From Escherichia coli (GTDB taxonomy: Bacteria > Pseudomonadota > Gammaproteobacteria > Enterobacterales > Enterobacteriaceae): DNA of 64,000 bases. The DNA lies in the NCBI RefSeq assembly GCF_003790525.1, contig NZ_CP033635.1; one strand, 5' to 3'. Positions 4,815-61,140 of this stretch are shown one piece after another. Position 1 is the stretch's first letter. The number at the start of each line of letters is the position of its first letter. Made by a program: the position numbers and the translations under genes. Below the pieces are notes generated by a model. It did not search any database, was not told the DNA's origin, and saw only the letters and a program-made list of their open reading frames with translations.

Positions 4815-4897
4815 TTATCTTTTTTACGGCGACACGGCCAAAATAATTGCAGATTTCGTTACCACGACGACCATGACCAATCCAGGAGAGTTAAAGT

Positions 4898-6307: not shown

Positions 6308-6367
6308 TAGTTGAAGTTGTACTACCCGGCGCAACAACGCTGGGATTTAGTTGCCGTGGAAACTTTC

Positions 6368-6393
6368 AGCCCATCTCTGCATGGGCTTTTTTC
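6368..6393 (+). terminator. glnA rho-independent terminator
   Basis: Hairpin agcccatctctgcatgggct followed by TTTTTT. Confidence 0.7.
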
Positions 6394-6442
6394 TCCGTCA
6401 ATTCTCTGATGCTTCGCGCTTTTTATCCGTAAAAAGCTATAA

Positions 6443-6459
6443 TGCACTAAAATGGTGCA
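6443..6459 (+). promoter_or_regulatory. NtrC site overlapping the glnL promoter
   Basis: tgcactaaaatggtgca dyad about 25 nt upstream of the glnL start. Confidence 0.65.
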
Positions 6460-6480
6460 ACCTGTTCAGGAGACTGCTTT

Positions 6481-10736: not shown

Positions 10737-10924
10737 GCTCACTCCTTCCGATGGCGTCTCTGGCGGCTACGGCGTACCGGCGGATGCCCGTTTCGGGTCA
10801 TCAGCCGGTTGCGCAGCCACTTTTGTCGCCGCGACAACCGCTGTAGTTTAACGAATAACCACACCAGATAACATATAACCGGAAGGGTTATCAGCAGAAC
10901 GGGAAGGCCCACGGCGGCAATCCG

Positions 10925-11434
10925 TTAGTTGCCCCGCAGCAGACGCATCATGTCTTCTTGCTTCTCGTCTTCTTCCTCTTCTTCGTCATCGTCATAAGAG
11001 AGGCCGAGTTTCTGCATCAACTCATCAATACGATCCAGTTTAGCATCCACCCAGGATTGCTCTTCGGCGCTCAGGGTTTCGCCTGCTTCCAGACGTTCCA
11101 GCAGCGCATCCAGACGCTCATCCGTTTCCAGTAATTCCAACTCCGCCTGCGGTGAAAGCATAGGTTTCTCACTCTTCGGTTTGTGCTGTTTGGTGACTTT
11201 TTCAGTCACGCCCAATGGAATAGGGGTTTTACTGCCAATACGTGGATCTTTTGGTGCGTTCTGGCCTTTGCTGCCTGACGAGGTGTTACCGCCCGCTGCG
11301 CGGCTGCCCGGCGCATGACCACGACGTTTTTTCTGACGCTTACGGTCACGAGCTTCCTGATCCAGCTCCTCGCGTGTTTTTCGACGCGCTTTTGCATGAC
11401 CTTTGCTGCGTGAGTTTGAAGATGATGGTTTCAT
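10925..11434 (-). CDS. yihI: Der GTPase-activating protein YihI
   Basis: Basic N-terminus and acidic C-terminus ([22 protein letters not shown]); start taken at [11 protein letters not shown]. Confidence 0.85.
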
Positions 11435-11502
11435 AATGGTTCGTCTTTTAGCCGTTTTATTCAGTATAGATTTGCGGCGGAATCTAACAGAAAGCAAGCA
11501 AA

Positions 11503-11745
11503 GAAAAAAGGCGACAGATTACTCTGTCGCCTTTTTTCCTGACTCATAACCCTTAACGGGTCTTACAATCCTTGCAGGCCGCCAACACACCCTGTTTTTC
11601 CATTAGCCGGAACAATCCGTGTTGATTCCATTTCCGTTTAATTACGTCTCCGGACGTTTGTCTTCCTGACAATCCTCTGTCTTCGCCTCCTGGCGCTCCT
11701 GACCCTCATCCTGAGTCATTGTTCCTGTTAGCGTCCTCGCTCTAT
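11503..11745 (-). ncRNA. csrC: CsrC sRNA (CsrA-sequestering)
   Basis: Minus-strand sequence carries many GGA motifs (caggatgagggtcaggagcgccaggaggcgaagacagaggattgtcaggaaga...) and ends in the hairpin ggcgacagagtaatctgtcgcc plus a T-run; sits between yihI and engB. Ends approximate. Confidence 0.7.
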
Positions 11746-12015
11746 GGGTGCTACTTTACGCCTTTGCTTTAAACAAACAATCAACCGCCATCAGTATTTG
11801 CACATTTTCAGAGTTTTATATAAAAGCAATTAACTGATTTATATAGCTTATTTGACATGCGTCGCAGAATTTTCTCTGCTATTTCGCATAAAGACTATCG
11901 GCAATGTCTCACAAAGCGTATGGCTTTTACTTACAACGCTCACGCCGAAAAATCCGCCTTTTATTATGGTTCAGGTATAATCGCCGCAAAGCTTTGACTG
12001 ACGGAGACGACCGCT

Positions 12016-45196: not shown

Positions 45197-45234
45197 TATC
45201 CCACAATATGAGATGGAGTTTATATTGTGGGATA
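45197..45234. promoter_or_regulatory. Perfect 13-bp inverted repeat, candidate operator in the rmuC / IclR-operon intergenic region
   Basis: tatcccacaatat (45197-45209) and atattgtgggata (45222-45234) are exact reverse complements separated by 12 bp, about 60 bp upstream of the IclR-family gene start. Confidence 0.5.
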
Positions 45235-45294
45235 TATCACCTTTTCCCCACGTCATTATGTGGAACACTTCAGCAATATCATCAGGAGAAACGT

Positions 45295-46062
45295 ATGGCA
45301 GAAACCTCTTCAACCACCGCAGGCGCACAAACGTTATTACGTGGACTGGCGGTTCTTAATGCTGTTTATAACGGCTGCCATGACCTAAAAAGTATCGGCG
45401 AGTTCACCGGCACGACCCGGAGCACAACCCATCGTTTAGTCACCGTTCTGGTGGAACAACGCTACCTGCGCCATGTCCCAACGCAGGGCTACCAACTGGG
45501 TGCCAAACTGATCGAATTCGGTGCCAGAGCACTGGAAAGCACCTCGCTGTACGAAATTGCCCAGCCCGTTTTGCAACGCCTTGCCCGTTACACCCTGGAC
45601 ACCGTGCATCTGGGGATCGTTGAAGGCGACGAAGTGCTGTATCTGGAGAAGATCAACAGTCAGCGCGGGCTGGAAATGCGCTCACGCCCAGGCCATCGCA
45701 TGCCACTGGCAATCACCGGCATCGGCAAAGCATTGATACTCAACCGAACAGAAGAAGAGTGGCGCACGCTGTTTAAGACCTGTGGTGATGAAACAAAACT
45801 GGGCGCATTTATTCAGAACATGCGTCGTTATGCCGCCAGTGGTTTTGCTTTTGATCTGGAAGAGAACGAGCCGACTATCCGTTGCGTTGCAGCGCCGGTT
45901 TACAACGCCCGGGATGAAATTGTGGCGGCTATTTCTGTCGCCAGTACCACCACGTATATGTCGCTGGCGCGTCTGGAAGAACTGGCACCTTACGTCAAAT
46001 CCTGTGCAGAAGAGATATCCGCTGAACTGGGCTGGGGTAAGCACGTCCGCAAAGATAAATAA
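45295..46062 (+). CDS. IclR-family transcriptional regulator
   Basis: ATG at 45295 with aggag RBS; N-terminal HTH region (LKSIGEFTGTTRSTTHRLVTVL) and C-terminal IclR effector-like domain. Not in the K-12 order as recalled. Confidence 0.8.
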   Translation: MAETSSTTAGAQTLLRGLAVLNAVYNGCHDLKSIGEFTGTTRSTTHRLVTVLVEQRYLRHVPTQGYQLGAKLIEFGARALESTSLYEIAQPVLQRLARYTLDTVHLGIVEGDEVLYLEKINSQRGLEMRSRPGHRMPLAITGIGKALILNRTEEEWRTLFKTCGDETKLGAFIQNMRRYAASGFAFDLEENEPTIRCVAAPVYNARDEIVAAISVASTTTYMSLARLEELAPYVKSCAEEISAELGWGKHVRKDK

Positions 46063-46085
46063 ACCATGATTAAAGGAAACGACTA

Positions 46086-47090
46086 ATGCCGGGAGCACCC
46101 TCATTTATTGCCCTGGACTGGGGAACGTCATCGCTTCGGGCATGGCGTTTTGGCGAATCACCAAATCCACAAGAAAAACGTGAATTCCCCTGGGGGATCA
46201 TGAAATTACCCTCCCAGGCAGCAACACGTGAGGACGCTTTCCACGATACGTTTTTACGTGTCTGCGGCGACTGGCTGGCACAAACCCCATGCCCGGTACT
46301 GGCTTGCGGCATGCTCGGCAGTGCGCAAGGGTGGCAACCAGCAGCTTATTTACCTTGCCCGGTCACTCTCGAGGGTCTGGCGAAGCAGTTGACGCCAGTT
46401 ATCCACCAGCAGCAGACAATGCTGCACATCATTCCTGGCGTGATTAAAGAAGGTGAAATGCCCGAAGTGATGCGTGGCGAAGAGACACAAATCTTCGGTG
46501 CTATCTCGATGGAACCGGCCCTGCAAAACGCGATCCATCAGGGTATGCCAGTGCTGATAGGCTTACCCGGCACACATGCGAAATGGGCAGTAGTTGAAAA
46601 CAACACCATTACCGATTTCCGAACCTTTATGACGGGCGAGTTATTTGATGTTTTATCCCGCCATTCGATTCTCGGTGCCACCATGCATCCTGGAGATGAA
46701 CCGCACTGGGATGCCTTCACCCACGGGCTGACAGCAGCACAAGAGCATCATCAGACCGGATTATTATCGACGCTGTTTTCGACCCGTTCGCGCCTGCTGA
46801 CCAGTAATCTTACGTCGTCCTCGCAGGGGGATTACCTTTCCGGATTACTGATAGGCCATGAATTATGCGGTCTGGCATCCAGTTTGCTACGTGATTTACC
46901 CGCCACAACACCGATCGCCTTAATCGGTAGCGCAAATCTGAACAGCCGCTATTCACAAGCATTCAGCCACGTTTTTCCCGACAGACAGATACACGCCATT
47001 CCTAATGCCACTGAACAGGGATTATGGCGAATCGCCCACGCTGCCGGGTTACTGTCCACCAACGCCAGGGAATGTACCCATGCCATTTAA
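46086..47090 (+). CDS. 2-dehydro-3-deoxygalactonokinase (DgoK)-family sugar-acid kinase
   Basis: 334-aa ORF with DgoK-family signatures IALDWGTSSLRAW, VMRGEETQIFG, PGTHAKW, FRTFMTGELF. Confidence 0.8.
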   Translation: MPGAPSFIALDWGTSSLRAWRFGESPNPQEKREFPWGIMKLPSQAATREDAFHDTFLRVCGDWLAQTPCPVLACGMLGSAQGWQPAAYLPCPVTLEGLAKQLTPVIHQQQTMLHIIPGVIKEGEMPEVMRGEETQIFGAISMEPALQNAIHQGMPVLIGLPGTHAKWAVVENNTITDFRTFMTGELFDVLSRHSILGATMHPGDEPHWDAFTHGLTAAQEHHQTGLLSTLFSTRSRLLTSNLTSSSQGDYLSGLLIGHELCGLASSLLRDLPATTPIALIGSANLNSRYSQAFSHVFPDRQIHAIPNATEQGLWRIAHAAGLLSTNARECTHAI

Positions 47091-47709
47091 GACGCTTTTG
47101 CAAAAAACCGGGTTAGTCGCCATTTTACGCGGCGTGAAACCGGATGAGATTGTCGCCATCGGTGAAAAACTGTACGCCGCCGGATTCCGCCTGATTGAGA
47201 TTCCTATGAACTCGCCGGAGGCGTTGCAAAGTATCAGTTTACTGCGCGACGCCCTGCCTAAGGATTGCCTGGTCGGAGCCGGAACTGTGCTTTCGGTAGA
47301 GCAGGTGGTTGCGGTTAAAGAGGCTGGGGGCCAGATTATCGTGATGCCGCATTGCGATACTGCGGTGATCCGTCGCGCCCGTGCGCTGGGTATGTATTGT
47401 GCGCCTGGCGTCGCCACGCCCACCGAAGCCTTTGCTGCCATTGAACATGGTGCTAATGCCATCAAGCTGTTCCCGGCTGAACAAATTACGCCAGAAGTTA
47501 CCAAAGCCTGGCGTGCGGTTATTCCACAATCCGTTCCGATGTTACCGGTTGGCGGTATCACACCGGAAACCATGGCGCGTTATCTGAGCCACGGCGCAAA
47601 CGGCTTTGGCCTCGGTTCTGCGCTATATCACCCCGGCATGACGCCAGAGCAAGTCTATGAAAATGCAGTACTGTTTATGAACGCATGGAACAATTTAAAT
47701 AGCAACTAA
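47080..47709 (+). CDS. KDPG/KDPGal-type class I aldolase (DgoA/Eda family)
   Basis: ATG at 47080 (MPFKTLLQKTGLVAILRGVKPDEI...); motifs AILRG, IEIPMNSP, GAGTVL, CAPGVATPTEAF, GGITPE resemble DgoA. Overlaps the kinase by 11 nt. Confidence 0.8.
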   Translation: MPFKTLLQKTGLVAILRGVKPDEIVAIGEKLYAAGFRLIEIPMNSPEALQSISLLRDALPKDCLVGAGTVLSVEQVVAVKEAGGQIIVMPHCDTAVIRRARALGMYCAPGVATPTEAFAAIEHGANAIKLFPAEQITPEVTKAWRAVIPQSVPMLPVGGITPETMARYLSHGANGFGLGSALYHPGMTPEQVYENAVLFMNAWNNLNSN

Positions 47710-47733
47710 CTGATAAATAAGGATATAAAAGCA

Positions 47734-48708
47734 ATGATAAAACATCTTACCTTACCGAAAAAAATGGCTGCAATGGTACTTCTTGCAGGCGCTGCCCTCA
47801 GCATTGCGCCTGTACAGGCAGCCTCCTACCCAACCAAACAGATCGAGTTAGTCGTTCCCTACGCTGCCGGAGGCGGTACGGATCTGGTTGCCCGTGCCTT
47901 TGCTGATGCCGCCAAAAACCATTTACCCGTCAGCATCGGGGTTATCAATAAACCTGGCGGAGGCGGTGCTATCGGCCTGAGTGAAATCGCCGCTGCCCGC
48001 CCTGGCGGTTACAAAATTGGTTTAGGCACGGTTGAACTGACCACCCTTCCCAGCCTCGGAATGGTGCGTTTTAAAACCAGCGATTTTAAACCCATTGCCC
48101 GTCTAAACGCGGATCCGGCTGCTATCACCGTCCGTTCTGATGCGCCGTGGAATAGCTATGAAGAATTTATGACTTACGCCAAAGCGAATCCCGGAAAAGT
48201 ACGCATTGGTAACTCAGGCACCGGAGCTATCTGGCATCTGGCGGCAGCTGCACTGGAAGACAAAACGGGTGCGAAGTTTTCTCATGTCCCGTATGACGGC
48301 GCAGCCCCTGCCATTACAGGCCTGTTAGGCGGGCATATTGAAGCGGTTTCCGTAAGCCCAGGAGAAGTTATCAACCATGTGAAAGGCGGCAAGCTGAAGA
48401 CACTGGTAGTGATGGCGGATGAGCGAATGAAAACCATGCCTGACGTCCCGACGTTAAAAGAGAAAGGCGTTGATCTCTCCATCGGCACCTGGCGCGGCCT
48501 GATTGTGTCGCAAAAAACGCCGCAGGATGTGGTGGATGTTCTGGCAAAGGCAGCAAAAGAGACGGCTGAAGAGCCTGCATTCCAGGATGCACTGCAAAAG
48601 TTGAATCTCAACTATGCATGGCTTGACGCTGCCAGCTTCCAGACCCAAATCAGCGAACAGGAAAAGTACTTTGACGAGTTGCTGACTCGCCTGGGCCTGA
48701 AAAAATAA
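47734..48708 (+). CDS. tctC: Tripartite tricarboxylate transporter periplasmic substrate-binding protein (TctC/Bug family)
   Basis: 324-aa ORF with signal peptide (MAAMVLLAGAALSIAPVQAAS) and Bug/TctC-like sequence; aggat RBS. Confidence 0.8.
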   Translation: MIKHLTLPKKMAAMVLLAGAALSIAPVQAASYPTKQIELVVPYAAGGGTDLVARAFADAAKNHLPVSIGVINKPGGGGAIGLSEIAAARPGGYKIGLGTVELTTLPSLGMVRFKTSDFKPIARLNADPAAITVRSDAPWNSYEEFMTYAKANPGKVRIGNSGTGAIWHLAAAALEDKTGAKFSHVPYDGAAPAITGLLGGHIEAVSVSPGEVINHVKGGKLKTLVVMADERMKTMPDVPTLKEKGVDLSIGTWRGLIVSQKTPQDVVDVLAKAAKETAEEPAFQDALQKLNLNYAWLDAASFQTQISEQEKYFDELLTRLGLKK

Positions 48709-48724
48709 ACCTGAGGTACGGTTG

Positions 48725-49231
48725 ATGAACACAAAACAGTCTGTTGCTCAACTCGCCGTACCGCACCGCAAGCGCCTTTCATCAACGATGGTGGTGGCGC
48801 TGTTACTTTGTGTGGTTGCTGGCGCGGTGATGATTAATGCCGCTGATTTTCCAGCAACTGCCATTGAAACGGATCCCGGTGCAAGTGCCTTCCCTACCTT
48901 CTATGCCTGTGCCCTGATTGTGCTCGCTGTCTTGCTGGTGATACGCGATCTTTTGCAGGCAAAACCAGCCTCTTGCGCCAACGCACAGGAAAAACCGGCA
49001 TTCAGGAAAACGGCAACAGGAATTGCGGCAACCGCGTTTTATATTGTGACGATGAGCTACTGCGGTTATCTCATTACTACTCCTGTTTTCCTCATCGTCA
49101 TTATGACGTTGATGGGCTACAGGCGATGGGTACTCACACCGGGTATTGCGCTGCTGTTAACGGCAATCCTCTGGTTGCTGTTTGTCGAAGCGTTACAGGT
49201 GCCATTGCCTGTCGGCACATTTTTCGAATAA
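48725..49231 (+). CDS. tctB: Tripartite tricarboxylate transporter small membrane subunit (TctB family)
   Basis: About 168 aa, four predicted hydrophobic segments; sits between TctC-like and TctA-like genes. Start at ATG 48725 (TTG 48722 is an alternative). Confidence 0.65.
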   Translation: MNTKQSVAQLAVPHRKRLSSTMVVALLLCVVAGAVMINAADFPATAIETDPGASAFPTFYACALIVLAVLLVIRDLLQAKPASCANAQEKPAFRKTATGIAATAFYIVTMSYCGYLITTPVFLIVIMTLMGYRRWVLTPGIALLLTAILWLLFVEALQVPLPVGTFFE

Positions 49232-49243
49232 CAGGGGCCAGCA

Positions 49244-50734
49244 ATGTTTGAAAGTGAACTTTTAACTCAGGGTTTTTCGACATTACTCAATAATCCTCAG
49301 GCGCTGCTGTTTGCCACTTTTGGGGTGATGCTGGGTATTGTGATTGGCGCTTTGCCTGGTCTGACAGCGACCATGGGTGTGGCGATTTTGCTGCCTTTCA
49401 CCTACGGCATGGAGCCTGTTTCTGGCTTGTTGATGATTTGCGGCGTCTTTTTTGGTGGCGTCTACGGTGGTTCTATCACCGCAATTTTGCTCAAAATTCC
49501 CGGAACGCCTGCCGCCGCAGCCACCGCTATTGATGGTTATGAGCTGACGAAACAGGGAAAAGCAGGGCTGGCATTGAGTGCCGCCACGTTCTCTTCCTTT
49601 AGTGGCGGAACGCTCAGCATTATCGTGCTGATGTTTCTCTCTCCGGTACTTGCCAGTTGGGCGCTGAAATTTAGTGCCTCGGAGTCCTTCGCCCTGGCAA
49701 CCTTCGGACTGAGCATTATTGCCAGTATTTCCGGTGAGTCACTGATTAAAGGGCTGATTGCCGGGGTTGGCGGATTGCTGATCGCAACGATAGGCCTTGA
49801 TCCAATGGGCGGTTTTCCACGGTTTACAGGTGGATTTGTGGAGCTGATGAATGTGCCATTTATCCCGGTGATGATTGGTTTATTTGCTGCTTCAGAAGCA
49901 TTCCGCTCTATGGAGCAAAACCAGCAAATTCGTCAGGGGGCGAAGGTGGCTATCGGCAGTCTGTTACTGCCCTGGCAAACACTACGCCGCATTGCATTAA
50001 CCATTTTGCGCTCATCAGGATTAGGGGTTTTTATCGGCATGATCCCCGGTGCGGGGGCGGATATTGCAGCTTTTGTTGCCTATAACGAAACTCGTCGTTT
50101 CAGTAAGACACCAGAAAACTTTGGTAAGGGTGAAATTAAAGCTGTGGCCTCCTGTGAGGCAGGCGCGAATGGCTGCACCGGTGGCGCATTGTTACCTATG
50201 CTGACGCTGGGGATCCCTGGCGATGCGGTAACCGCCATCATGCTGGGCGCGTTAACGTTACAGGGAATGCAACCAGGCCCGCTGATGTTTACCGACCACG
50301 GCGATATGGTTTATACACTGTTTGTCGGCATGATCTTCTGTTACTTCATGCTACTAGTTCTTGGACTGCTCTCTTTGAAAGTCATCGGTAATGTGGTGAA
50401 AATTCCCGGCAATATTCTCACACCGATGATCCTCGCACTTTGTGTGGTCGGGACTTATGCGTTGAACAATAGCCTGTTTGATGTTGGCATTATGCTGATT
50501 GCAGGCGTGGTGGGCTATTTCATGCAGAAAGGAGGATATCCGGCATCACCCGTAGTGCTGGCATTGATTATGGGGCCAATGGCGGAAAGTAATTTTCGCC
50601 GTGCGCTGTCGCTTTCTGGTGGGTCACTCGACTTTCTGTATACCCGACCGATAACTCTGGCATTGCTGACTCTGGCAGCCTTTACGCTACTGACGCCAAT
50701 AATCCGCAAAATAATGCGTTTACGGCGTCAATAA
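49244..50734 (+). CDS. tctA: Tripartite tricarboxylate transporter large permease (TctA family)
   Basis: 496-aa polytopic membrane protein with the duplicated TctA/DUF112-type glycine-rich architecture (e.g. GALPGLTATMG, GMIPGAGADIAAF). Confidence 0.8.
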   Translation: MFESELLTQGFSTLLNNPQALLFATFGVMLGIVIGALPGLTATMGVAILLPFTYGMEPVSGLLMICGVFFGGVYGGSITAILLKIPGTPAAAATAIDGYELTKQGKAGLALSAATFSSFSGGTLSIIVLMFLSPVLASWALKFSASESFALATFGLSIIASISGESLIKGLIAGVGGLLIATIGLDPMGGFPRFTGGFVELMNVPFIPVMIGLFAASEAFRSMEQNQQIRQGAKVAIGSLLLPWQTLRRIALTILRSSGLGVFIGMIPGAGADIAAFVAYNETRRFSKTPENFGKGEIKAVASCEAGANGCTGGALLPMLTLGIPGDAVTAIMLGALTLQGMQPGPLMFTDHGDMVYTLFVGMIFCYFMLLVLGLLSLKVIGNVVKIPGNILTPMILALCVVGTYALNNSLFDVGIMLIAGVVGYFMQKGGYPASPVVLALIMGPMAESNFRRALSLSGGSLDFLYTRPITLALLTLAAFTLLTPIIRKIMRLRRQ

Positions 50735-52603: not shown

Positions 52604-52669
52604 CGCCATAGTCGCTAAATCTGATGATTAAGCTCACACAATTTCAACGATTTTTTTAATCTCAAAACC

Positions 52670-52698
52670 ATACAGCATCAAAAAATTTGTTGCTGTAT
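52670..52698. promoter_or_regulatory. 8-bp perfect inverted repeat with A/T-rich 13-bp spacer, candidate regulator site upstream of the hydrolase operon
   Basis: atacagca-tcaaaaaatttgt-tgctgtat; a related copy gcaaaaatttcgttgctgt lies at 52747-52765. Confidence 0.45.
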
Positions 52699-52859
52699 GC
52701 CACTCTTTGACTCCCTTCACATTCGTCATCACACCACCTGCTGAATGCAAAAATTTCGTTGCTGTGCGGCAAACTTTTTTCCTGTTTTGTGCCGCTTTTC
52801 TCCTGAATACTCGTTCTCAGAACAACTGGATCGTTTAAACATCAGACAGGAGATTTACC

Positions 52860-53528
52860 ATGACGCAATCCATTTTTCAGGCTCAACCCTTTGAATTACC
52901 TTTTGATCCGCGCACAACTGCACTGGTCATGATCGACATGCAGCGTGACTTTGTCGAAGCAGGGGGCTTCGGTGAGGCACTGGGCAATGATGTTTCACTG
53001 GTACGCACGGCTATCGCACCATGTACAGAGGTGCTGGCAGCCGCACGTCAAAAAGGAATTATGGTTATTCATACTCGTGAAGGCCATCGTGCAGACTTAA
53101 GCGACTGCCCGCCAGCCAAACTGACGCGCGGCGGAAAAACCTTTATTGGTGAACCAGGACCGATGGGACGCATTCTGGTCAGAGGTGAAGCAGGTCATGA
53201 CATCATTCCTGAACTGTACCCGGTGGCAGGCGAACCGGTGATTGATAAGCCTGGCAAAGGCGCGTTTTATCAAACCGACTTACATCTGATTTTGCAAAAC
53301 CACGGTATCAAGACGCTGATAGTTTGTGGTGTTACAACCGAAGTTTGCGTAACCACCACCGTGCGCGAAGCAAATGATCGTGGCTATGAATGCATTATCC
53401 CGGAAGATTGTGTCGGCTCCTATTTCCCGGAATTCCAGAAATACGCCCTCGAGATGATCAAAGCACAAGGTGCCATTTTCGGTTGGGTTACTGATTCCAA
53501 AGCCATTATTGCAGGCCTGGAAGGCTAA
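52860..53528 (+). CDS. Isochorismatase-fold cysteine hydrolase (amidohydrolase; RutB/BiuH/CSHase-like)
   Basis: 222-aa ORF with aggag RBS; motifs ALVMIDMQRDF (Asp) and LIVCGVTTEVCV (catalytic Cys context) typical of this subfamily. Confidence 0.75.
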   Translation: MTQSIFQAQPFELPFDPRTTALVMIDMQRDFVEAGGFGEALGNDVSLVRTAIAPCTEVLAAARQKGIMVIHTREGHRADLSDCPPAKLTRGGKTFIGEPGPMGRILVRGEAGHDIIPELYPVAGEPVIDKPGKGAFYQTDLHLILQNHGIKTLIVCGVTTEVCVTTTVREANDRGYECIIPEDCVGSYFPEFQKYALEMIKAQGAIFGWVTDSKAIIAGLEG

Positions 53529-53533: not shown

Positions 53534-54394
53534 ATGGTACAGGTTACGCTTTGCGCATCGTCGTTGGGATATCTTTTCCCGCAGAATGAAACGCAAGATT
53601 TACGTCTACATAGCGCTTTTAAACATGCGGTAAATCTGTATTCAGACGCGGGAACATTCATCACTCTGTTGTGTGCGCAAACGTATCTGAATCTCCCTGA
53701 TGCAGCCAGAGTCTGGCTACCTGAATGTTGGGACTGGCGAAGAGAGATTGCCCATTCAGATCCCATTCAGTTAACCCCAGGCTTACTGCGGACACCTCGA
53801 TTTTGTGTGGCGCTCGAAAACGCAACGCTCTGGCAGTCGCCATTTGTGGGGGGAATGCTGACACTTGAGGCATTCCCTTTGGTTTTCCAGCACTACCCAA
53901 CGATGGCATCGCAACGGCTTTTATTTTGTCTGGAACATAACGTTCAAAGCACATTGCACCTGCCGGATAGTCTCACGCACCAGGGATTAGCGATTATGGA
54001 GCATCCAGATGCGCTGGAACGCCAGGTGCCACAACTGATCGGCTTTGGTAAAGGCTTAACGCCCGATGGAGATGACTATTTGTTGGGCTATCTGGCAGCA
54101 CTCTGGTTATGGCAACTCCCTGCACCACTTGCCGATCATCAATACCGGTTGCAGCAGGTAATTGATCAACATGCGCACAACACCACGGATATCAGTCGTC
54201 ATTATCTGGAGCGTGCGCTTCAGGGACATTTTTCAGAACCGATTTGCCAGTTACTCGCACAACTGGTTGGGAGTGCATCGGCAATGACAATCGCATCCTG
54301 TGCAGAACAGGTCATGCAATTTGGCGCAACGTCAGGAGTAGATTGCCTTGCAGGAATGCTGCATGGCTTTCGAACCCTGAACACCATAAATTGA
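53534..54394 (+). CDS. DUF2877-family protein (YahE/YlbF-like)
   Basis: 286-aa ORF starting 5 nt after the preceding stop; resembles YahE / AllH-type proteins that accompany FdrA-like genes (from memory). Confidence 0.6.
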   Translation: MVQVTLCASSLGYLFPQNETQDLRLHSAFKHAVNLYSDAGTFITLLCAQTYLNLPDAARVWLPECWDWRREIAHSDPIQLTPGLLRTPRFCVALENATLWQSPFVGGMLTLEAFPLVFQHYPTMASQRLLFCLEHNVQSTLHLPDSLTHQGLAIMEHPDALERQVPQLIGFGKGLTPDGDDYLLGYLAALWLWQLPAPLADHQYRLQQVIDQHAHNTTDISRHYLERALQGHFSEPICQLLAQLVGSASAMTIASCAEQVMQFGATSGVDCLAGMLHGFRTLNTIN

Positions 54395-54488: not shown

Positions 54489-56048
54489 ATGAAAGTTAAA
54501 TATAAAGTTTTCAGTAATCTTTATCAGGACTCAGTTTCTCTGATGCAGATTTCCGCGCAAATCAGCAAGTTGCCCGGTATTCAACAGGCCTCGGTCGTCA
54601 TGGGAACACCCAATAATCTCGAGCAATTGAGCGATGCGGGTCTGGGTAACGAAATCAACGCCAGTCCCAATGATTTAGTGATTGCAGTCATGGGTGAAGA
54701 AGATATTTGCAATGAAGCACTGGTACTGGCCCAGCAACGTCTGACCAGCAAACCCGATGATGAAACGGATAGTGGCATTAAAACACCGGAAAAGGTCAGC
54801 CTGGAAATGGCACTGGAAGCCGAGCCCGAAGCCAACCTGGCACTCATTTCTGTACCGGGAGACTACGCCGCCGCCGAAGCAATTAAAGCGTTAAACCTCG
54901 GAATGAACGTGATGATGTTCAGCGATAACGTCAGTATCGTGCAGGAAAAATCCATCAAAACGCTTGCCCGAGAACGTCAGCGCATCGTAATGGGACCTGA
55001 CTGTGGAACCGCCATTGTTAACGGCATTCCGTTAGGCTTCGCTAATGTGGTGAAACGCGGAGCAATTGGTGTTATTGGCGCGTCAGGCACCGGGCTACAG
55101 GAAGTGACTTGCCGAATCGACCAGCTCGGAGCGGGTATTTCTCAGGCGTTGGGAACAGGCGGACATGATCTCAGTGAAGAGATTGGTGGAATATCGATGC
55201 TCTTCGCTTTAGATGCGCTGGCGCAAGACGATGAAACTCGCGTGATTGTGCTTATTTCAAAACCGCCTTCACCGATCGTTGCCCGGACTATTCTGGAGCG
55301 TGCCGAGGCTTGTGGAAAACCCGTGGTGGTGAATTTCCTCGGTGCGAATCCGCATGATCTGGCACGTCCCAATATCACCGCGGCCACCACACTTGCCAGC
55401 GCCGCAAATATCGCCGTGGCGTTACTGAATGATCAACCACTTCCGACTATCGAGACCGAAATTTCCTGCGACGATCTCACAATGTTACAAAACGCCTGCC
55501 AGCGCCTGCCAGCCCATCGCCAGGCGATACGCGGTGTTTTCGCCGGAGGAACCTTCTGCTACGAAGCGCAACTTATCTGCCAACAAAAGGGATTCAGCGC
55601 AGCCTCCAATACGCCAGTTGCGGGTAATCGTGCTCTGGCAAATATCTGGCAAAGCGAAGATCACACGTTGATCGATATGGGCGACGATGATTTCACCCGT
55701 GGCAAACCGCATCCAATGATCGACCCGACTCTGCGCAATCAACGTCTGCTCAACGAACTCAACGACTCACACACTGCCGTCGTGTTATTCGACCTGGTAC
55801 TTGGTTATGGCGCTTCCACGACGCCTGCCAGCGAATTACTGGACCAACTTTCACACATCGACATGAATAACGCACCGTTGCTGATTGCGCACGTTTGCGG
55901 AACGGAAGCTGATCCGCAAATACGCAGTCAGCAGATAAGCGCACTACAAAATGCAGGGGTCATCATCGCCAGCAGCAATGCACAGGCGGCGTTATGGGCC
56001 AGCACCGTTGCACAGACTCAGTTGCAGAAAAAGGGGCTAAACGCATGA
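54489..56048 (+). CDS. FdrA/YahF-like protein (succinyl-CoA-synthetase-alpha-like, CoA-binding fold)
   Basis: 519-aa ORF with Gly-rich nucleotide/CoA-binding-like segments (VIGASGTGLQEV, GTGGHD). Confidence 0.7.
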   Translation: MKVKYKVFSNLYQDSVSLMQISAQISKLPGIQQASVVMGTPNNLEQLSDAGLGNEINASPNDLVIAVMGEEDICNEALVLAQQRLTSKPDDETDSGIKTPEKVSLEMALEAEPEANLALISVPGDYAAAEAIKALNLGMNVMMFSDNVSIVQEKSIKTLARERQRIVMGPDCGTAIVNGIPLGFANVVKRGAIGVIGASGTGLQEVTCRIDQLGAGISQALGTGGHDLSEEIGGISMLFALDALAQDDETRVIVLISKPPSPIVARTILERAEACGKPVVVNFLGANPHDLARPNITAATTLASAANIAVALLNDQPLPTIETEISCDDLTMLQNACQRLPAHRQAIRGVFAGGTFCYEAQLICQQKGFSAASNTPVAGNRALANIWQSEDHTLIDMGDDDFTRGKPHPMIDPTLRNQRLLNELNDSHTAVVLFDLVLGYGASTTPASELLDQLSHIDMNNAPLLIAHVCGTEADPQIRSQQISALQNAGVIIASSNAQAALWASTVAQTQLQKKGLNA

Positions 56049-57469
56049 ATACCTTATTTAATCAGCCTTTGAAGGTTGTGAACGCGGGACTACACAGTTT
56101 TGCTGACAATATTCAACATGCCGGGGGAAGCGCAATTGCACTCAACTGGCAGCCACCAGCACAAGGCGATATTGACGCTGGATTGGATCTGGCATCGTTG
56201 CTACGTCATCCCCTGGTAGAAAATGCCAACCAAATCGCCATGACACGTTATCTCGAAGCACAGCCCGTGCTGGTGGATGTCATGCTCGCTAAAGAGGCCA
56301 TTCCAGAAATGGCTGAACAAAAACGTATTTTGCACTCTGGCCCGCCGATTGCCTGGGAAGAGATGTGTGGTCCGGTAAAAGGGGCGATTATTGGTGCCAT
56401 GCTGTACGAAGGTTGGGCCACCAGCCAGCAAGACGCTGAAAACCAAATAAACGCAGGCGAAATCGACCTTGCCCCTTGTCATCATTATCACGCGGTTGGC
56501 CCAATGGCAGGCATCATCAGCCCGTCGATGCCGTTATGGGTGGTAGAAAACAAAACCAACGGCCACCGTACTTTTAGCAATTTCAATGAAGGTCTGGGTA
56601 AGGTTCTCCGTTTTGGCGCCAATAACGATGAAGTTCTCAATCGTCTGGCCTGGATGCGCGATGAACTGGCGCCGGCAATGAAAGCAGCAATCGCACAACA
56701 CGGCGAGCTGGAACTCAAGCCATTAATGGCGCAGGCGCTGCATATGGGGGATGAAGTTCATAACCGCAATGCTGCCGCTACCGGTTTGCTGATTAAGCGC
56801 CTGCTCCCGGCATTGCTGGCCTGCTCTCTTCCACAGGAACATATCCAGCGCGTCGTGGCATTTATCACCGGTAACGATCACTTCTTCCTCAATCTTTCGA
56901 TGGCCGCCTGTAAAGCAATGATGGATGCCGCCGCCAATGTACCGTTCAGTTCAATGGTTACGGTGATGGCGCGTAACGGGGTGAATTTTGGTATTCGGCT
57001 TTCCGGTACTGGCGATCGCTGGTTCCAGGCTCCTGCCAATGCCGTTGAAGGTCTGTTCTTCCCCGGATTTGGCGTCGACGATGCCGCTGCTGACCTGGGT
57101 GATAGCGCAATTACTGAAACCGCAGGTGTGGGTGGCTTCGCGATGGCGTCGTCTCCGGCGATCGTCAAATTTGTGGGAGGCACCCCTGCCGATGCCACCA
57201 ATAACAGCCGTCGGATGCAAGCCGTCACCCTCGGCGGTAACCCCGCATTTACACTTCCAGCCCTCAATTTTGCCCCCACCGCAGCAGGGATTGATGCGCG
57301 TAAAGTGACCGATCGCGGCATTTTACCGGTCATCAATACGGGTATCGCCCACAAACAAGCGGGGGTCGGGCAAATTGGTGCCGGGATCACCACTGCGCCG
57401 ATGGCCTGTTTTGTCGCCGCTGTACGTGCACTGGCGGAGATCGTCGCAAAGGAGAACCATCATGGTTAA
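56045..57469 (+). CDS. DUF1116-family protein (YahG/YlbE-like)
   Basis: Start at ATG 56045 overlapping the FdrA-like stop (ATGA); aagggg RBS 8 nt upstream; 474 aa. Confidence 0.65.
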   Translation: MNTLFNQPLKVVNAGLHSFADNIQHAGGSAIALNWQPPAQGDIDAGLDLASLLRHPLVENANQIAMTRYLEAQPVLVDVMLAKEAIPEMAEQKRILHSGPPIAWEEMCGPVKGAIIGAMLYEGWATSQQDAENQINAGEIDLAPCHHYHAVGPMAGIISPSMPLWVVENKTNGHRTFSNFNEGLGKVLRFGANNDEVLNRLAWMRDELAPAMKAAIAQHGELELKPLMAQALHMGDEVHNRNAAATGLLIKRLLPALLACSLPQEHIQRVVAFITGNDHFFLNLSMAACKAMMDAAANVPFSSMVTVMARNGVNFGIRLSGTGDRWFQAPANAVEGLFFPGFGVDDAAADLGDSAITETAGVGGFAMASSPAIVKFVGGTPADATNNSRRMQAVTLGGNPAFTLPALNFAPTAAGIDARKVTDRGILPVINTGIAHKQAGVGQIGAGITTAPMACFVAAVRALAEIVAKENHHG

Positions 57470-58418
57470 GCCACTGGCTGTCGTCGCGGTTGGCGGCAAT
57501 GCGCTCATTCAGGACGAGCAACGCAATAGTATTCCCGATCAATATGTTGCAGTGATGGAAAGCGTGCAGCATATCGTTGATATGGTTGAAGCCGGATGGG
57601 ACCTGGTGCTAACCCACGGTAATGGCCCGCAGGTGGGCTTTATTCTGCGCCGCTCTGAACTCGCCAGTAACGAAGTTTCTCCGGTTCCACTTGATTACGC
57701 CGTGGGTGATACACAAGGTGCAATTGGCTACATGTTCCAGAAAGCACTGCATAACGAATTGGCTCGCCGTGGCATAAACAAACCGGTAATTGCCCTGGTG
57801 ACACAAACGCGAGTCAGCCCACATGACGATGCTTTCGCCAGCCCCAGTAAACCAATTGGCGCGTTTCTCGATGAAGCAACGGCCCAACAACGCCAACAAC
57901 AACTCGGCTGGACGCTGATGGAGGACGCCGGGCGTGGTTGGCGGCGTACAGTTCCCTCTCCTGCCCCACTGGAAGTTATTGAGCACGACACCATCGCTCA
58001 CCTGGTGCGCCAGGGATATCTGGTTATTGCCTGCGGCGGCGGCGGTATTCCGGTGGTGCGAGACGGACAACAACTGAAAGGTGTAGAAGCCGTGATCGAT
58101 AAAGATCTGGCCTCCGCGCTGCTCGCCAGTCAGTTAGGCGCAGATCTGCTGGTGATCCCCACCGGTGTAGAAAAAGTGGCGATTAACTTTGGTACACCAC
58201 AACAACAGTGGCTCGACGCTATCAGCGTTGCCGAAGCGCAAACGCTGTTGCGGGAAGGTCAGTTTGGTGTCGGCAGTATGCAACCCAAAGTGGAAGCCAT
58301 TGTTGATTTCATCAATGCCAGCCAGCAACAAGGCAAACAGGCCAGCGGCCTGATTACTTCACCGCAAACCATAAAAGCAGCCCTGGCGCATCAGAGCGGT
58401 ACATGGATAACCCTTTAA
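57462..58418 (+). CDS. Carbamate kinase
   Basis: Start at ATG 57462 (MVKPLAVVAVGGNALIQ...), aggag RBS; amino-acid-kinase-fold motifs (VLTHGNGPQVG, IACGGGGIPVV); 318 aa. Confidence 0.8.
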   Translation: MVKPLAVVAVGGNALIQDEQRNSIPDQYVAVMESVQHIVDMVEAGWDLVLTHGNGPQVGFILRRSELASNEVSPVPLDYAVGDTQGAIGYMFQKALHNELARRGINKPVIALVTQTRVSPHDDAFASPSKPIGAFLDEATAQQRQQQLGWTLMEDAGRGWRRTVPSPAPLEVIEHDTIAHLVRQGYLVIACGGGGIPVVRDGQQLKGVEAVIDKDLASALLASQLGADLLVIPTGVEKVAINFGTPQQQWLDAISVAEAQTLLREGQFGVGSMQPKVEAIVDFINASQQQGKQASGLITSPQTIKAALAHQSGTWITL

Positions 58419-58434: not shown

Positions 58435-58824
58435 ATGACTACAACGCTTTTAGCCGTTAACGGAACGCTGATGCGCGGCCTGGAACTCAACCCAAATATG
58501 CAAAAAGCGGGCGGTATTTTTGTCCGTGAAGACCGAACTGACGCCCATTACCGGTTGTGGAGTATTAATGATCGCCATCCGGGAATGATTCGCGTGAATG
58601 AAGGAGGAACACACGTCGACGTAGAAATTTGGCAATTACCGCTGGCCAGTTTTGCCGCTCTGTTAATGAGCGAACCCGCTGGGCTGGCAATTGGCAAAAT
58701 CAAACTTGCCGATGGTAGCGAAGTGCTGGGCGTACTGGCAGAAAACTGGCTGACCGAAGGCCAACGGGAAATTACAGAACTGGGTAGCTGGCGCAAATAC
58801 ACCGGGCATTTTCATACTGTGTAA
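58435..58824 (+). CDS. AIG2 / gamma-glutamylcyclotransferase-like small protein
   Basis: 129-aa ORF; N-terminal LLAVNGTLMRG resembles the GGCT/AIG2 fold; ggag RBS. Confidence 0.55.
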   Translation: MTTTLLAVNGTLMRGLELNPNMQKAGGIFVREDRTDAHYRLWSINDRHPGMIRVNEGGTHVDVEIWQLPLASFAALLMSEPAGLAIGKIKLADGSEVLGVLAENWLTEGQREITELGSWRKYTGHFHTV

Positions 58825-58849: not shown

Positions 58850-60073
58850 ATGCGTAAAAAAGAAGAGAATCTGAATACGGCATCAGGATTGCGTATTGCC
58901 ATGATTTTGCTGGGTATTGCCGTCACACCTGTGCTGTTGTCATCCTCAAGCCTCGGCAATCAACTTTCCAGCGGCAGTTTAATTAGCGTCGTATTGTTAG
59001 GCGGCGTCATTCTGACCTTACTTTCAGCCATCACCATTAGCGTGGGAGAAAAAGCCCGCCTACCAACGTATGGCATTGTGAAATATTCGTTTGGCGAAAA
59101 AGGGGCCATCGCCATTAACATTTTGATGGCGATAAGTCTGTTCGGCTGGATTGCCGTTACCGCCAATATGTTTGGTCATTCGGTACATGACTTACTGGCT
59201 CAACATGGACTGGAAGTTCCACTGGCACTGTTAGTGGCGGCTGGCTGTGTCATTTTTGTCGCCTCTACGGCATTTGGCTTTGCCGTTCTGGGAAAAATTG
59301 CCCAGGTTGCCGTGCCGGTTATCGCGCTGGTGCTGTGTTACATCCTCTATGTGGCAACCCATACCGAAGTGGCAGTACCAGCGGCGATTGTGGAGATGAA
59401 TACAGGTGTCGCCGTTTCCACCGTTGTTGGCACCATTATTGTGCTGGTTGCCACACTGCCTGATTTCGGTAGTTTTGTGCATAACCGCAAACATGCGCTG
59501 ATTGCCGCAGGCGTGACGTTTCTGGTTGCCTACCCTCTGCTCTACTGGGCGGGTGCAACGCCGAGCGCCATTAGTGGTCAGGGATCTTTACTGGGTGCGA
59601 TGGCGGTATTCGGTGCGGTTCTGCCTGCGGCGCTGTTGTTGATTTTCGCCTGCGTCACCGGTAACGCGGGCAATATGTTCCAGGGCACGCTGGTGGTTTC
59701 CACACTGCTTACCCGCTTTCCCAAATGGCAGATTACCGTGGCGCTGGGTATCCTTTCCGCCATCGTAGGCAGTATGGATATTATGGCGTGGTTTATTCCG
59801 TTTCTGCTGTTCCTGGGTATCGCCACGCCACCCGTTGCCGGAATTTATATCGCTGACTTTTTCTTTTATCGCCGTAATGGCTATCAAGAGTCAGTGTTAG
59901 CCCAGGAGTCACAGATTAAAGTGCTGACATTCGCAGCATGGATCATAGGCGCAGCGGTTGGCTTTATGACCGTAAAAGGCTTATTCACCCTGACGACGAT
60001 CCCTTCGGTAGACTCGATTCTGGTGGCATGTATCGCTTATGCGATTCTCAGTCGGGCAAGTCAACACCGCTAA
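58850..60073 (+). CDS. NCS1-family nucleobase:cation symporter (cytosine/hydantoin/allantoin permease-like)
   Basis: 407-aa ORF with about 12 hydrophobic segments; resembles CodB-type permeases. Confidence 0.7.
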   Translation: MRKKEENLNTASGLRIAMILLGIAVTPVLLSSSSLGNQLSSGSLISVVLLGGVILTLLSAITISVGEKARLPTYGIVKYSFGEKGAIAINILMAISLFGWIAVTANMFGHSVHDLLAQHGLEVPLALLVAAGCVIFVASTAFGFAVLGKIAQVAVPVIALVLCYILYVATHTEVAVPAAIVEMNTGVAVSTVVGTIIVLVATLPDFGSFVHNRKHALIAAGVTFLVAYPLLYWAGATPSAISGQGSLLGAMAVFGAVLPAALLLIFACVTGNAGNMFQGTLVVSTLLTRFPKWQITVALGILSAIVGSMDIMAWFIPFLLFLGIATPPVAGIYIADFFFYRRNGYQESVLAQESQIKVLTFAAWIIGAAVGFMTVKGLFTLTTIPSVDSILVACIAYAILSRASQHR

Positions 60074-60150: not shown

Positions 60151-61047
60151 ATGTTCATCTCAGACGAAACGCTTCGTGTTATTCATCTGGTCGCCAGACA
60201 CCAGAGCATTACCACCGCAGCCGAGCAGTTAAATAAAGTCCCTTCCGCCATCAGTTACACCATCAAGAAAGCGGAAGAGAGCCTGGGCGTTGAACTGTTC
60301 ATTCGTAAGGGACGCTATATTGAATTATCGCCAGCGGGAAGTTACTTCATCGAACATAGCAAAACTATTCTTGGCGACCTGGAAGCATTAAAGCGCAACA
60401 CAGTGCTGATTCACGATGGTATTGAGCGTGAACTGACAATTGCGGTAAACAATATTATTCCTGGTGATTTGCTGGTGGCATTTATTCGAGATTTTGAACG
60501 GCAATTCACATCAACAACACTGACGGTAGATCTTGAGGTATACAACGGCTGCTGGGATGCGCTGTACAGTAAGCGTGCCGATCTGGTCTACGGTGCTCCT
60601 CATGCAGTGCCAAGCAGTGAAGGCATCATTAGCGAACCGGTCGGACAAATGGAATGGGATTTTGTCGTCAGCCCACTCCACCCACTGGCAGCGAAGCGGC
60701 ATCCATTAGAAAACAGTGAATTGCGTCATTATCCAGCGGTTTGTATCCGCGATACCTCCGTTAACTTCCCCCCGATGCAAGCCTGGTTGTTGGAAGGACA
60801 AAAACCCATTTTTGTTCCTGACTTCGCTACGGCAATCGCCTTAATAGAACAAAACGTCGGTATTGGTTATATTCCACATCATCTGGCATTGCCGTTATTG
60901 AACAGCGGTAAATTGCTTAAAAAGCCAATGCGCGAACATAAACACGCCACCAAGTTATTTCTTGCCGCTCGTTCCGATGGTATGGGCAAAGCCTGTCAGT
61001 GGTGCATAGAATATTTAAGAAATCCGCAATTAATTTTCTGTTCCTGA
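60151..61047 (+). CDS. LysR-family transcriptional regulator
   Basis: 298-aa ORF with N-terminal LysR HTH (LVARHQSITTAAEQLNKVPSAISYTIKKAEESLGVELFIR) and substrate-binding domain. Confidence 0.8.
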   Translation: MFISDETLRVIHLVARHQSITTAAEQLNKVPSAISYTIKKAEESLGVELFIRKGRYIELSPAGSYFIEHSKTILGDLEALKRNTVLIHDGIERELTIAVNNIIPGDLLVAFIRDFERQFTSTTLTVDLEVYNGCWDALYSKRADLVYGAPHAVPSSEGIISEPVGQMEWDFVVSPLHPLAAKRHPLENSELRHYPAVCIRDTSVNFPPMQAWLLEGQKPIFVPDFATAIALIEQNVGIGYIPHHLALPLLNSGKLLKKPMREHKHATKLFLAARSDGMGKACQWCIEYLRNPQLIFCS

Positions 61048-61079
61048 AGATCCACATCATACCTGGCATACATAGCAAA

Positions 61080-61105
61080 ATGGCTTCCGGTGTTGGAAGC
61101 CATTA
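61080..61105. terminator. Bidirectional terminator between the LysR gene and metE
   Basis: Hairpin aatggcttccggtgttggaagccatt. Confidence 0.6.
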
Positions 61106-61140
61106 TTGTGCTGCAATTTACAATGACTCGTTAATACTCA

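Follow-up and report, generated by a model that had tools for sequence, protein, structure and literature searches.

The closest solved relative of the enzyme considered here is TrtA of Herbaspirillum sp. BH-1 (PDB 6XIX, 6XJE, 6XJ4), an amidohydrolase reported to be ultraspecific for triuret, in which thiolate attack is followed by ammonia release and hydrolysis of the thioester to a carboxylate (PMC7948467). Its genes sit with biuH, atzF, trtB, and an ABC transporter, and the characterized triuret pathway runs from TrtA through TrtB and BiuH to AtzF. Other solved relatives include BiuH (Rhizobium leguminosarum 6AZO and others; Rhodococcus RhdBiuH 6XJM) and RutB of Escherichia coli (8BKD), likewise a member of the cysteine-hydrolase branch acting on a ureide. 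A second set of described enzymes is AllFGH, shown in 2024 to be a three-subunit oxamate carbamoyltransferase (OXTCase) that forms carbamoyl phosphate plus oxamate from oxalurate and phosphate, and whose partner is the catabolic carbamate kinase AllK (PMC11326118, PMC9843812). Here, we analyzed a 64,000-nucleotide stretch of E. coli contig NZ_CP033635.1 (assembly GCF_003790525.1), hereafter the window, in which a gene at 52860–53528 encodes a putative TrtA-type hydrolase. Unlike trtA, this gene and its clade stand beside genes for AllH/F/G-like proteins, a carbamate kinase, a stand-alone allophanate-hydrolase C-terminal domain (AH_C), and an NCS1 permease. The reading we favor, with modest confidence when taken as a whole, is that a TrtA-side amidohydrolase feeds a phosphorolytic pathway encoded by this cassette.

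The hydrolase gene and the codons of its catalytic triad are as follows:

52860–53528, plus strand: TrtA-type cysteine amidohydrolase, 222 amino acids, ATG start, protein WP_000194414.1
52935–52937, plus strand: GAC codon of Asp26, catalytic triad by alignment
53247–53249, plus strand: AAG codon of Lys130, catalytic triad by alignment
53346–53348, plus strand: TGC codon of Cys163, catalytic triad by alignment

The open reading frame (ORF) carries AGGAG at 52848–52852, eight bases 5′ of the ATG, and its product matches Pfam PF00857 Isochorismatase over profile positions 1–173 of 175 (E-value 5.9e-48, 163.7 bits, cut-off 27). An earlier sequence-only reading had placed this protein in the cysteine-hydrolase branch of the isochorismatase fold on the basis of two segments, MIDMQRDF and VCGVTTEVCV, and both are present exactly as quoted, at residues 24–31 and 155–164. 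The branch assignment is borne out by the Pfam match and by a MAFFT alignment with TrtA and BiuH (sequences from a PDB search) and with RutB, PncA, YcaC, and EntB of E. coli K-12: Asp26 is the same in all sequences, Lys130 pairs with Lys everywhere but in YcaC, where MAFFT places Arg, and the column of Cys163 holds Cys in TrtA, BiuH, RutB, PncA, and YcaC but Gly in EntB. The Asp–Lys–Cys triad anticipated by that reading is thus kept relative to TrtA, BiuH, RutB, and PncA, with the Arg of YcaC the only departure among the amidases. HMMER aligned residues 113–197 without gaps to residues 127–211 of the chain of N-carbamoylsarcosine amidase (CSHase; PDB 1NBA), which maps K130 to residue 144 and C163 to residue 177; we take Lys144 and Cys177 to be the published catalytic residues of that enzyme. 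In addition, Val158–Thr159 occupies the cis-peptide position of TrtA V157–T158, with both residues conserved.

Consistent with these alignments, an AlphaFold2 model built from a 28-sequence alignment (predicted local distance difference test, pLDDT, 96.9) was matched by Foldseek to triuret-bound TrtA (6XJE) as its closest structure, with a template modeling (TM) score of 0.96 and a root-mean-square deviation of 1.0 Å, and to RutB and CSHase 1NBA with TM scores of 0.89 and 0.74, respectively. As judged from its sequence, the protein is a Cys-nucleophile amidohydrolase of isochorismatase-like fold and not an isochorismatase. This level of assignment, which is that of the sequence-only reading, is not new, since the RefSeq name of the gene is already “cysteine hydrolase family protein”. 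The further expectation of C–N hydrolysis of an amide or ureide, rather than isochorismate chemistry, appears sound given that the closest relatives are ureide and polyurea amidases and that no ent genes lie nearby.

Which of these amidases the hydrolase resembles most was evaluated at several levels. Among solved relatives, TrtA 6XIX gave the strongest match (E-value 8.7e-80), followed by BiuH of Rhizobium and Rhodococcus (~1e-69) and RutB (4e-29), with the rest far behind, and the aligned identities follow the same order (TrtA 59%, BiuH 53%, RutB 33%, PncA 27%, YcaC 25%, EntB 23%). BiuH structures matched the model about as well as TrtA did (TM 0.96–0.97), so that the fold alone cannot tell TrtA from BiuH. 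The NCBIfam equivalog model for BiuH, NF050097, reached an E-value of 1.3e-83 but 279.8 bits, under its cut-off of 370, and the RutB model TIGR03614 reached 111.9 bits, under its cut-off of 377.95; with both models below cut-off, the hydrolase is neither BiuH nor RutB by NCBI criteria.

Residues around the active site point more specifically to TrtA. In TrtA, triuret is contacted by D24, E72, K132, Q202′, and a water molecule held by T158 and E160, and a comparison of >500 sequences identified the second-shell residues F35, N41, A134, E160, Y187, and I205 as discriminating TrtA from BiuH, whose consensus at these six sites is Y, Y, S, D, T, V (PMC7948467). The hydrolase carries F37, N43, A135, E161, Y188, I206, Q203, E74, and K133, every one of them TrtA-type, and none of the six BiuH-consensus residues. 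Likewise, the two-stranded N-terminal beta-sheet that was lost in BiuH (PMC7948467) is predicted in the model of the hydrolase, with strands at residues 4–6 and 13–15. We scanned one genome per species and collected 80 loci whose hydrolases are 67–99% identical to the query. A 14-site signature, DFFNEKKATECYQI, is common to 74 sequences, made up of 72 of the 80 hydrolases from these loci, the query itself, and TrtA of Herbaspirillum as reference; BiuHs read DFYYEKKSTDCTQV at the same sites. The chief variant, Ser in place of Ala135, occurs in seven sequences (six mycobacterial, one from a Chloroflexota metagenome-assembled genome, MAG), and the equivalent substitution A134S was neutral in TrtA (PMC7948467). 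In a neighbor-joining tree rooted on RutB and built without bootstrap, the hydrolase, all locus hydrolases, Herbaspirillum TrtA, and a plasmid TrtA group together, opposite the BiuHs.

Taken together, the hydrolase (222 amino acids, compared to ~220 for TrtA) shares with TrtA the fold, the triad, the Val–Thr residues at the cis-peptide position, all contact and second-shell consensus residues, and the predicted N-terminal sheet, whereas with BiuH it shares the subfamily and the triad but neither the discriminating residues nor the absence of the hairpin. We regard its fold, triad, and TrtA-side subfamily as close to certain, and activity on triuret in vitro as likely, for what would be an uncharacterized new member of the TrtA/BiuH family. 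The sequence-only reading had also proposed this gene as the best handle on the substrate of the whole cluster, with CSHase, RutB, and BiuH as examples; the handle holds, and the list can be cut down to the side of TrtA in the division between TrtA and BiuH.

The surrounding region is E. coli, with 8.5 kb around the hydrolase 100% identical to strain SMS-3-5. Downstream of the hydrolase follow seven genes, separated by 5, 94, −4, −8, 16, 25, and 77 nt:

53534–54394, plus strand: AllH-like (DUF2877) subunit of an OXTCase-type carbamoyltransferase (Pfam PF11392 AllH, 4.3e-27)
54489–56048, plus strand: AllF/FdrA-like subunit (NCBIfam FdrA subfamily, 496 bits, cut-off 433)
56045–57469, plus strand: AllG-like (DUF1116) subunit, RefSeq start (Pfam PF06545 AllG, 9.4e-99)
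57462–58418, plus strand: carbamate kinase (TIGR00746 arcC, 364 bits, cut-off 358)
58435–58824, plus strand: stand-alone allophanate-hydrolase C-terminal domain (AH_C), 129 amino acids (Pfam PF21986 AH_C, 1.6e-41)
58850–60073, plus strand: NCS1-family (CodB-like) permease, presumed substrate importer (Pfam PF02133)
60151–61047, plus strand: LysR-type regulator related to PunR and AllS by profile matches, presumed cassette regulator

The three-subunit set of FdrA-like, DUF1116, and DUF2877 proteins is complete in the cassette. The AllH-like protein is 33% identical to K-12 AllH over 110 amino acids and 26% to YahE, the AllF-like protein 40% to AllF and 42% to YahF, the AllG-like protein 49% to AllG and 46% to YahG, and the carbamate kinase 38% to AllK and 48% to YahI. 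At 33–49% identity the set does not qualify as orthologous to E. coli allFGH, and it is about as distant from YahEFG (26–46%). On sequence grounds it is thus a third E. coli paralogous set besides all and yah, and strain NRG857c holds all three. The architecture is that of AllFGH/AllK of K-12, i.e., three subunits and a kinase, which would imply N-carbamoyl phosphorolysis coupled to ATP formation; in contrast to the all genes, the cassette has the order H-F-G-K as in yahEFGI, no all (allantoin) genes were found near it, and a TrtA-type hydrolase is adjacent instead. Because of this divergence, the lack of allantoin genes, and the adjacent hydrolase, the substrate of the cassette carbamoyltransferase is probably not oxalurate.

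Among the remaining genes, the permease is not CodB itself, since the cytosine permease model gives 146 bits against a cut-off of 326. AH_C is homologous to the C-terminal domain of allophanate hydrolase but stands alone, without the amidase-signature N-domain. The step carried out by that C-domain is the decarboxylation of N-carboxycarbamate. Allophanate is broken down in two consecutive reactions, of which this domain is reported to catalyze the second (PMC5770610). The AH_C protein is c4763 of strain CFT073, 100% identical over 129 amino acids to PDB 5C5Z, an entry deposited as “Glutamyl-tRNA amidotransferase”, a name unfit for a 129-residue allophanate-hydrolase C-domain (GGCT-like). Between the chromosomal and plasmid alleles of the cassette described below, the ratio of non-synonymous to synonymous substitution rates (dN/dS) was 0.06–0.23 in all seven genes (0.067 for the hydrolase), so that all seven are under purifying selection. 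As for gene starts, the AllF-like stop and the AllG-like start share 4 nt in the RefSeq annotation, and the 4- and 8-nt overlaps given by the annotated starts are typical of translational coupling. N-termini in the program-made ORF list extend beyond those of RefSeq in the AllG-like protein (55994 vs 56045) and the carbamate kinase (57375, TTG, vs 57462), and similarly for the neighboring ysgA (51728, GTG, vs 51794).

Next, we evaluated the linkage between the hydrolase and these genes across species by querying the 80 loci with the proteins of the cassette as well as AtzF, BiuH, and BMP taken from a classical trtA-biuH-atzF plasmid cluster. For the 62 well-flanked loci (≥7 kb on either side of the hydrolase), the neighbors included AllF and AllG homologues in 59, the carbamate kinase in 56, AH_C in 53, the permease in 46, and the LysR regulator in 43. 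Linkage was nearly complete across the 44 loci with hydrolases at least 80% identical to the query, with AllF, AllG, AH_C, and the permease in all 44 and the carbamate kinase in 43, while AtzF or BiuH was found beside the hydrolase in none of these 44. Gene order was the same in four loci from Beta- and Gammaproteobacteria inspected in detail. As the sequence-only reading had it, the hydrolase is the first enzyme gene, leading the cassette here and in most well-flanked related loci, although this order is broken in rearranged loci such as L064 and L072. Hydrolases at 80–88% identity came from Enterobacterales, Vibrionaceae, Shewanella, Psychrobacter, Avibacterium, Silvimonas, Caballeronia, Paraburkholderia, and Dyella, and the association with AllFG reaches Mycobacterium, Mycolicibacterium, Chloroflexota MAGs, Pseudovibrio, and Neisseriales.

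The classical context with AtzF, BiuH, and BMP was seen only below ~72% hydrolase identity (loci L074, L078, and L087). In the same range, three loci (L077, L083, and L092) have a mixed context of hydrolase, AllFG, and AtzF without BiuH, and two of the three also carry the carbamate kinase. Of the 71 AllF-bearing loci, 60 have stand-alone AH_C and 3 have full-length AtzF, and none has both. Given this linkage, we hold with good confidence that the hydrolase is functionally coupled to the AllFGH-like enzyme and the kinase.

Several individual loci depart from the common arrangement. In L077 (3947–9678; a marine alphaproteobacterial MAG), the hydrolase-AllHFG-kinase genes stand beside three amidase-signature genes, one of which encodes a full AtzF, and a protein of ~514 amino acids without a Pfam match separates the hydrolase from AllH; at the same position in L073 (Chloroflexota) are two proteins of similar size, likewise without a Pfam match. 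L018 (Chryseobacterium sp. 18061, labeled Bacteroidota) carries an Enterobacterales-like cassette with a hydrolase 86% identical to the query, and L064 (a Desulfotomaculum MAG, labeled Firmicutes) has a hydrolase 83% identical, with AllF, AllG, and the kinase at 44–52% and on the opposite strand. Both cases might reflect contamination, mis-binning, or recent transfer. In L028 (Avibacterium gallinarum; 4286–7200 and 10663–13600), two AllF/AllG-like pairs each follow a LysR gene, and only one is beside a hydrolase. Fusion relatives of the hydrolase (P0121–P0128, P0164, P0167, P0171, P0175, P0187) include tandem isochorismatase proteins (~500 amino acids) and isochorismatase plus amidase-signature proteins (~730 amino acids), as well as the 616-residue P0171, which joins a carbamate-kinase-like domain to an isochorismatase domain and may be a gene-call artefact. 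No Rosetta-stone fusion to AllF was found among the hydrolase relatives, the long fusions being isochorismatase plus amidase.

These observations suggest a pathway in which the NCS1 permease, going by gene linkage, would import the substrate, most probably triuret or a very close planar polyureide. By analogy with TrtA, Cys163, activated by Lys130 and Asp26, would attack the terminal carboxamide of this polyureide (for triuret, or carbonyldiurea, a terminal amide), ammonia would leave, and the thioester would be hydrolyzed to an N-carboxy-ureide, presumably carboxybiuret. The AllFGH paralogue would then phosphorolyze this product or an immediate derivative, taking off the terminal carbamoyl group as carbamoyl phosphate: as a best guess, carboxybiuret would yield carbamoyl phosphate and allophanate, and a second round might convert allophanate to carbamoyl phosphate and carbamate. 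The carbamate kinase would finally use carbamoyl phosphate and ADP to produce ATP, ammonia, and CO2. Carboxybiuret (H2N-CO-NH-CO-NH-COO-), allophanate (H2N-CO-NH-COO-), and oxalurate (H2N-CO-NH-CO-COO-) are all N-carbamoyl compounds of the same type; relative to oxalurate, carboxybiuret has one NH more and allophanate one CO less.

Carboxybiuret is favored as the hand-over point for three reasons, namely the pairing of hydrolase, AllFG, and AtzF without BiuH in L077, L083, and L092, the mutual exclusivity of AH_C and AtzF, and the clusters of comammox Nitrospira, which contain trtA, biuH, atzF, and allFGHK but not the carboxybiuret decarboxylase gene trtB (PMC12625717). The same study, the one paper found to note trtA/biuH beside allFGHK in comammox Nitrospira and ammonia-oxidizing archaea, treats allFGHK as a separate oxalurate pathway (PMC12625717). 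As for AH_C (c4763), we can only guess that it speeds the decarboxylation of an N-carboxy intermediate, like the same domain within allophanate hydrolase. For allophanate in the E. coli cassette, three possibilities can be seen: a second round of phosphorolysis could yield carbamate, decarboxylation with the help of AH_C could yield urea, or AH_C could act in a TrtB-like manner on carboxybiuret, with biuret then phosphorolyzed. That AH_C is TrtB itself was ruled out, as TrtB is an AtzH/HpxZ-type protein (supplement of PMC12625717), and the guess that a “formamidase” on an Enterobacter IncR plasmid might be TrtB was unsupported. For the specific scheme of carboxybiuret and allophanate phosphorolysis, we lean slightly toward doubt.

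A number of points weigh against the proposed pathway. The gene context differs from that of the characterized route TrtA-TrtB-BiuH-AtzF, and the cassette encodes no amidase-signature domain. To our knowledge, most E. coli also lack urease. With both missing, the cassette does not account for what becomes of allophanate or urea, and the part given to AH_C is a guess. In the rearranged loci L062, L064, and L072, AH_C keeps its place next to the hydrolase, which fits TrtB-like decarboxylation to biuret as well as the order we prefer. The TrtA-type call is drawn from sequence and model comparison, with only 59% identity to the one characterized TrtA, and its signature residues might be ancestral traits that would also suit another acyl-ureide. 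Database labels also point elsewhere, as BiuH is the top NCBIfam model, though below cut-off, and many homologues carry the Joint Genome Institute (JGI) label “biuret amidohydrolase”. Finally, L077 also has an AllD-like Ldh_2 dehydrogenase, so that in some genomes the AllFGH homologue may act on oxalurate, and triuret in the habitats of E. coli is presumed rather than established.

Some of these points feed the strongest alternative, in which the hydrolase acts on another acyl-ureide amide, such as oxalurate amide or a urate- or pyrimidine-derived ureide, and its product, oxalurate or an analogue, is passed to the OXTCase-type enzyme. Oxamate carbamoyltransferase is the only function known for the family of this downstream enzyme, the regulator is similar to AllS and PunR, the permease belongs to the nucleobase/allantoin family, and L077 has the AllD-like gene nearby. 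Nevertheless, the first- and second-shell residues of the hydrolase are identical to those of a triuret-ultraspecific enzyme, cassette-positive E. coli already own allFGHK for oxalurate, to which the cassette set is just 33–49% identical, and no cassette enzyme would make such an amide, so that we consider this alternative unlikely.

More doubtful still is that the hydrolase is a BiuH converting biuret to allophanate, which would then be phosphorolyzed by the AllFGH-like enzyme to carbamoyl phosphate and carbamate. The NF050097 match, the 53% identity to Rhizobium BiuH, the JGI labels of several homologues, and the close analogy between allophanate and oxalurate would all be accommodated, but the model score stays below its cut-off (279.8 vs 370 bits), all six BiuH discriminator residues are missing, the tree places the hydrolase on the TrtA side, and the N-terminal hairpin lost in BiuH is predicted to be present. 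A RutB-like ureidoacrylate amidohydrolase within a pyrimidine-degradation island, as suggested for region “GR 29” of strain BEN2908 (see below), could draw on the 32–33% identity to RutB and on the CodB-like permease; yet TIGR03614 gives 111.9 bits against a cut-off of 378, the signature differs at most active-site positions, TrtA and BiuH are far closer relatives, no rut genes lie nearby in the window, and, as far as checked, no rutA, rutC, rutD, rutE, or rutF homologues occur in the 80 loci, which makes this very improbable. That the protein is a true isochorismatase, as implied by the name of the Pfam family and by an older annotation of APECO1_2632 as “putative isochorismatase hydrolase”, or a non-catalytic family member, can practically be dismissed given the Cys nucleophile and full triad where EntB has Gly, 23% identity to EntB, the lack of chorismate or enterobactin context, and a dN/dS of 0.067, which indicates a constrained, functional enzyme.

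Returning to the TrtA-type hydrolase and its cassette, the region upstream of the gene contains two kinds of repeats:

52669–52699: near-perfect 14-nt inverted repeat CATACAGCATCAAA-N3-TTTGTTGCTGTATG, 93% complementary, from a repeat search
52682–52696 and 52750–52765, plus strand: two copies of the direct repeat AAAATTT(C)GTTGCTGT, from a motif search

The palindrome lies in the 256-bp region 5′ of the hydrolase and is a candidate operator. The direct repeat has two matches in the window compared to 0.00 expected from 100 shuffles, and related k-mers recur in 5–7 of the 33 upstream regions compared, including in other Enterobacterales. Palindrome and direct repeats together probably form a regulator site, with the repeats as candidate sites for the cassette LysR protein. 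A scan of the 33 upstream regions for a sigma-54 promoter (TGG-N9-TGC[A/T], a loose −24/−12 pattern) found none at the hydrolase and one match, in L040, and a sigma-70 and terminator scan performed no better than on shuffled sequences.

In E. coli, the cassette is part of islands that have been catalogued before, namely the 16-kb tkt1 island between metE and ysgA of B2 extraintestinal pathogenic E. coli (ExPEC) (PMC3349570) and “GR 29” of BEN2908, for which pyrimidine degradation was suggested (PMC12928451). Both share their insertion site and all eight genes (APECO1_2632–2639) with the window, the cassette being their ysgA-proximal part, and the publications on them leave its function open or propose pyrimidine or urea use. 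Compared to the tkt1 island, the window holds the cassette half only, without the hxlB-ptsG-tkt1-rpiR block, so that the cassette directly abuts metE. In B2 strains, the interval between metE and the LysR gene (NRG857c, L012 17235–24457) contains pseudogene remnants of the type VI secretion protein TssD, hxlB, a ptsG-like gene, tkt1, and an RpiR regulator gene; since the corresponding 61048–61140 of the window lacks this extra block, the tkt1 island falls into two separable modules, one for each half. By counts made with the hydrolase gene as well as with the entire region, 1559 of the 5426 complete genomes of E. coli (~29%) carry the cassette, almost always at ≥99% identity, and carriers include E. 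coli B/BL21 derivatives, Nissle 1917, sequence type 131 (ST131), and the adherent-invasive E. coli (AIEC) strain NRG857c. By comparison, c4763 is described, in the mention cited by PMC7558591, as a protein specific to uropathogenic E. coli (UPEC) and without an assigned function, yet its cassette is carried by ~29% of complete genomes, including B/BL21 and Nissle 1917.

A second allele of the cassette, at ~94.5% nucleotide identity, occurs in 82 conjugative-plasmid records, e.g., a chicken IncFIB/FIC plasmid of the pAPEC-O2 type. In pAPEC-O2-MS1657-1 (L011, 6015–14193), it lies beside iron ABC-transporter and cytochrome b562 genes, and many of the IncF plasmids with this allele are from poultry isolates. 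A few genomes have chromosomal and plasmid copies together, with up to three places per genome. In an AIEC transposon screen, “carbamate kinase (NRG857_19070)” was an in-vivo gut fitness gene, ascribed to arginine and pyrimidine synthesis (PMC8016931); judged by map position only, this is probably the cassette kinase (NRG857_RS19505, L012 27296–28252). Other candidate mentions were rejected: the DUF1116 genes in a UPEC transcriptome paper and in an IncHI2 paper are K-12 ylbE or another gene, and the carbamate kinase of a Nissle/BL21 paper is part of an arginine deiminase island. A role in defense was likewise discarded, as PADLOC gave no match for the three proteins scanned (hydrolase, AllH-like protein, AH_C). 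Elsewhere in the window, an accessory block between rmuC and udp (45208–50734) encodes an IclR regulator, 2-dehydro-3-deoxygalactonokinase, KDPGal aldolase, and a TctCBA tripartite tricarboxylate transporter, and is also found in NRG857c; K-12 presumably has nothing between these two genes.

Our literature search found no paper linking triuret to E. coli or to the tkt1/cassette island. Peroxynitrite converts urate to triuret, and triuret occurs in human urine (PMC7948467), which makes an association with ExPEC, AIEC, and avian pathogenic E. coli (APEC) plausible. The cassette would represent a new variant of polyurea or ureide catabolism, with a phosphorolytic, ATP-yielding module in place of BiuH and AtzF. 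More speculatively, and with some way to go before we would call it probable, this would be an undescribed phosphorolytic route replacing TrtB-BiuH-AtzF, in which the TrtA-type hydrolase forms carboxybiuret, a carbamoyltransferase of new specificity strips carbamoyl groups from carboxybiuret and/or allophanate, and ExPEC, AIEC, APEC, Nissle 1917, and BL21 gain nitrogen and energy from triuret derived from inflammation or uricotelic hosts. If true, triuret harvest would explain why the cassette is associated with islands of B2 ExPEC and with avian ColV-type plasmids. Should the linkage to the AllFGH-like enzyme prove functional, the new three-subunit carbamoyltransferase family would gain a second substrate, and an energy-conserving branch would be added to triuret, biuret, and cyanuric-acid catabolism. 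Overall, the enzyme class itself is ordinary, and the value of the TrtA-type call lies in the concrete experimental handle it provides on a widespread E. coli island between ysgA and metE that has been catalogued since ~2010 without a function.

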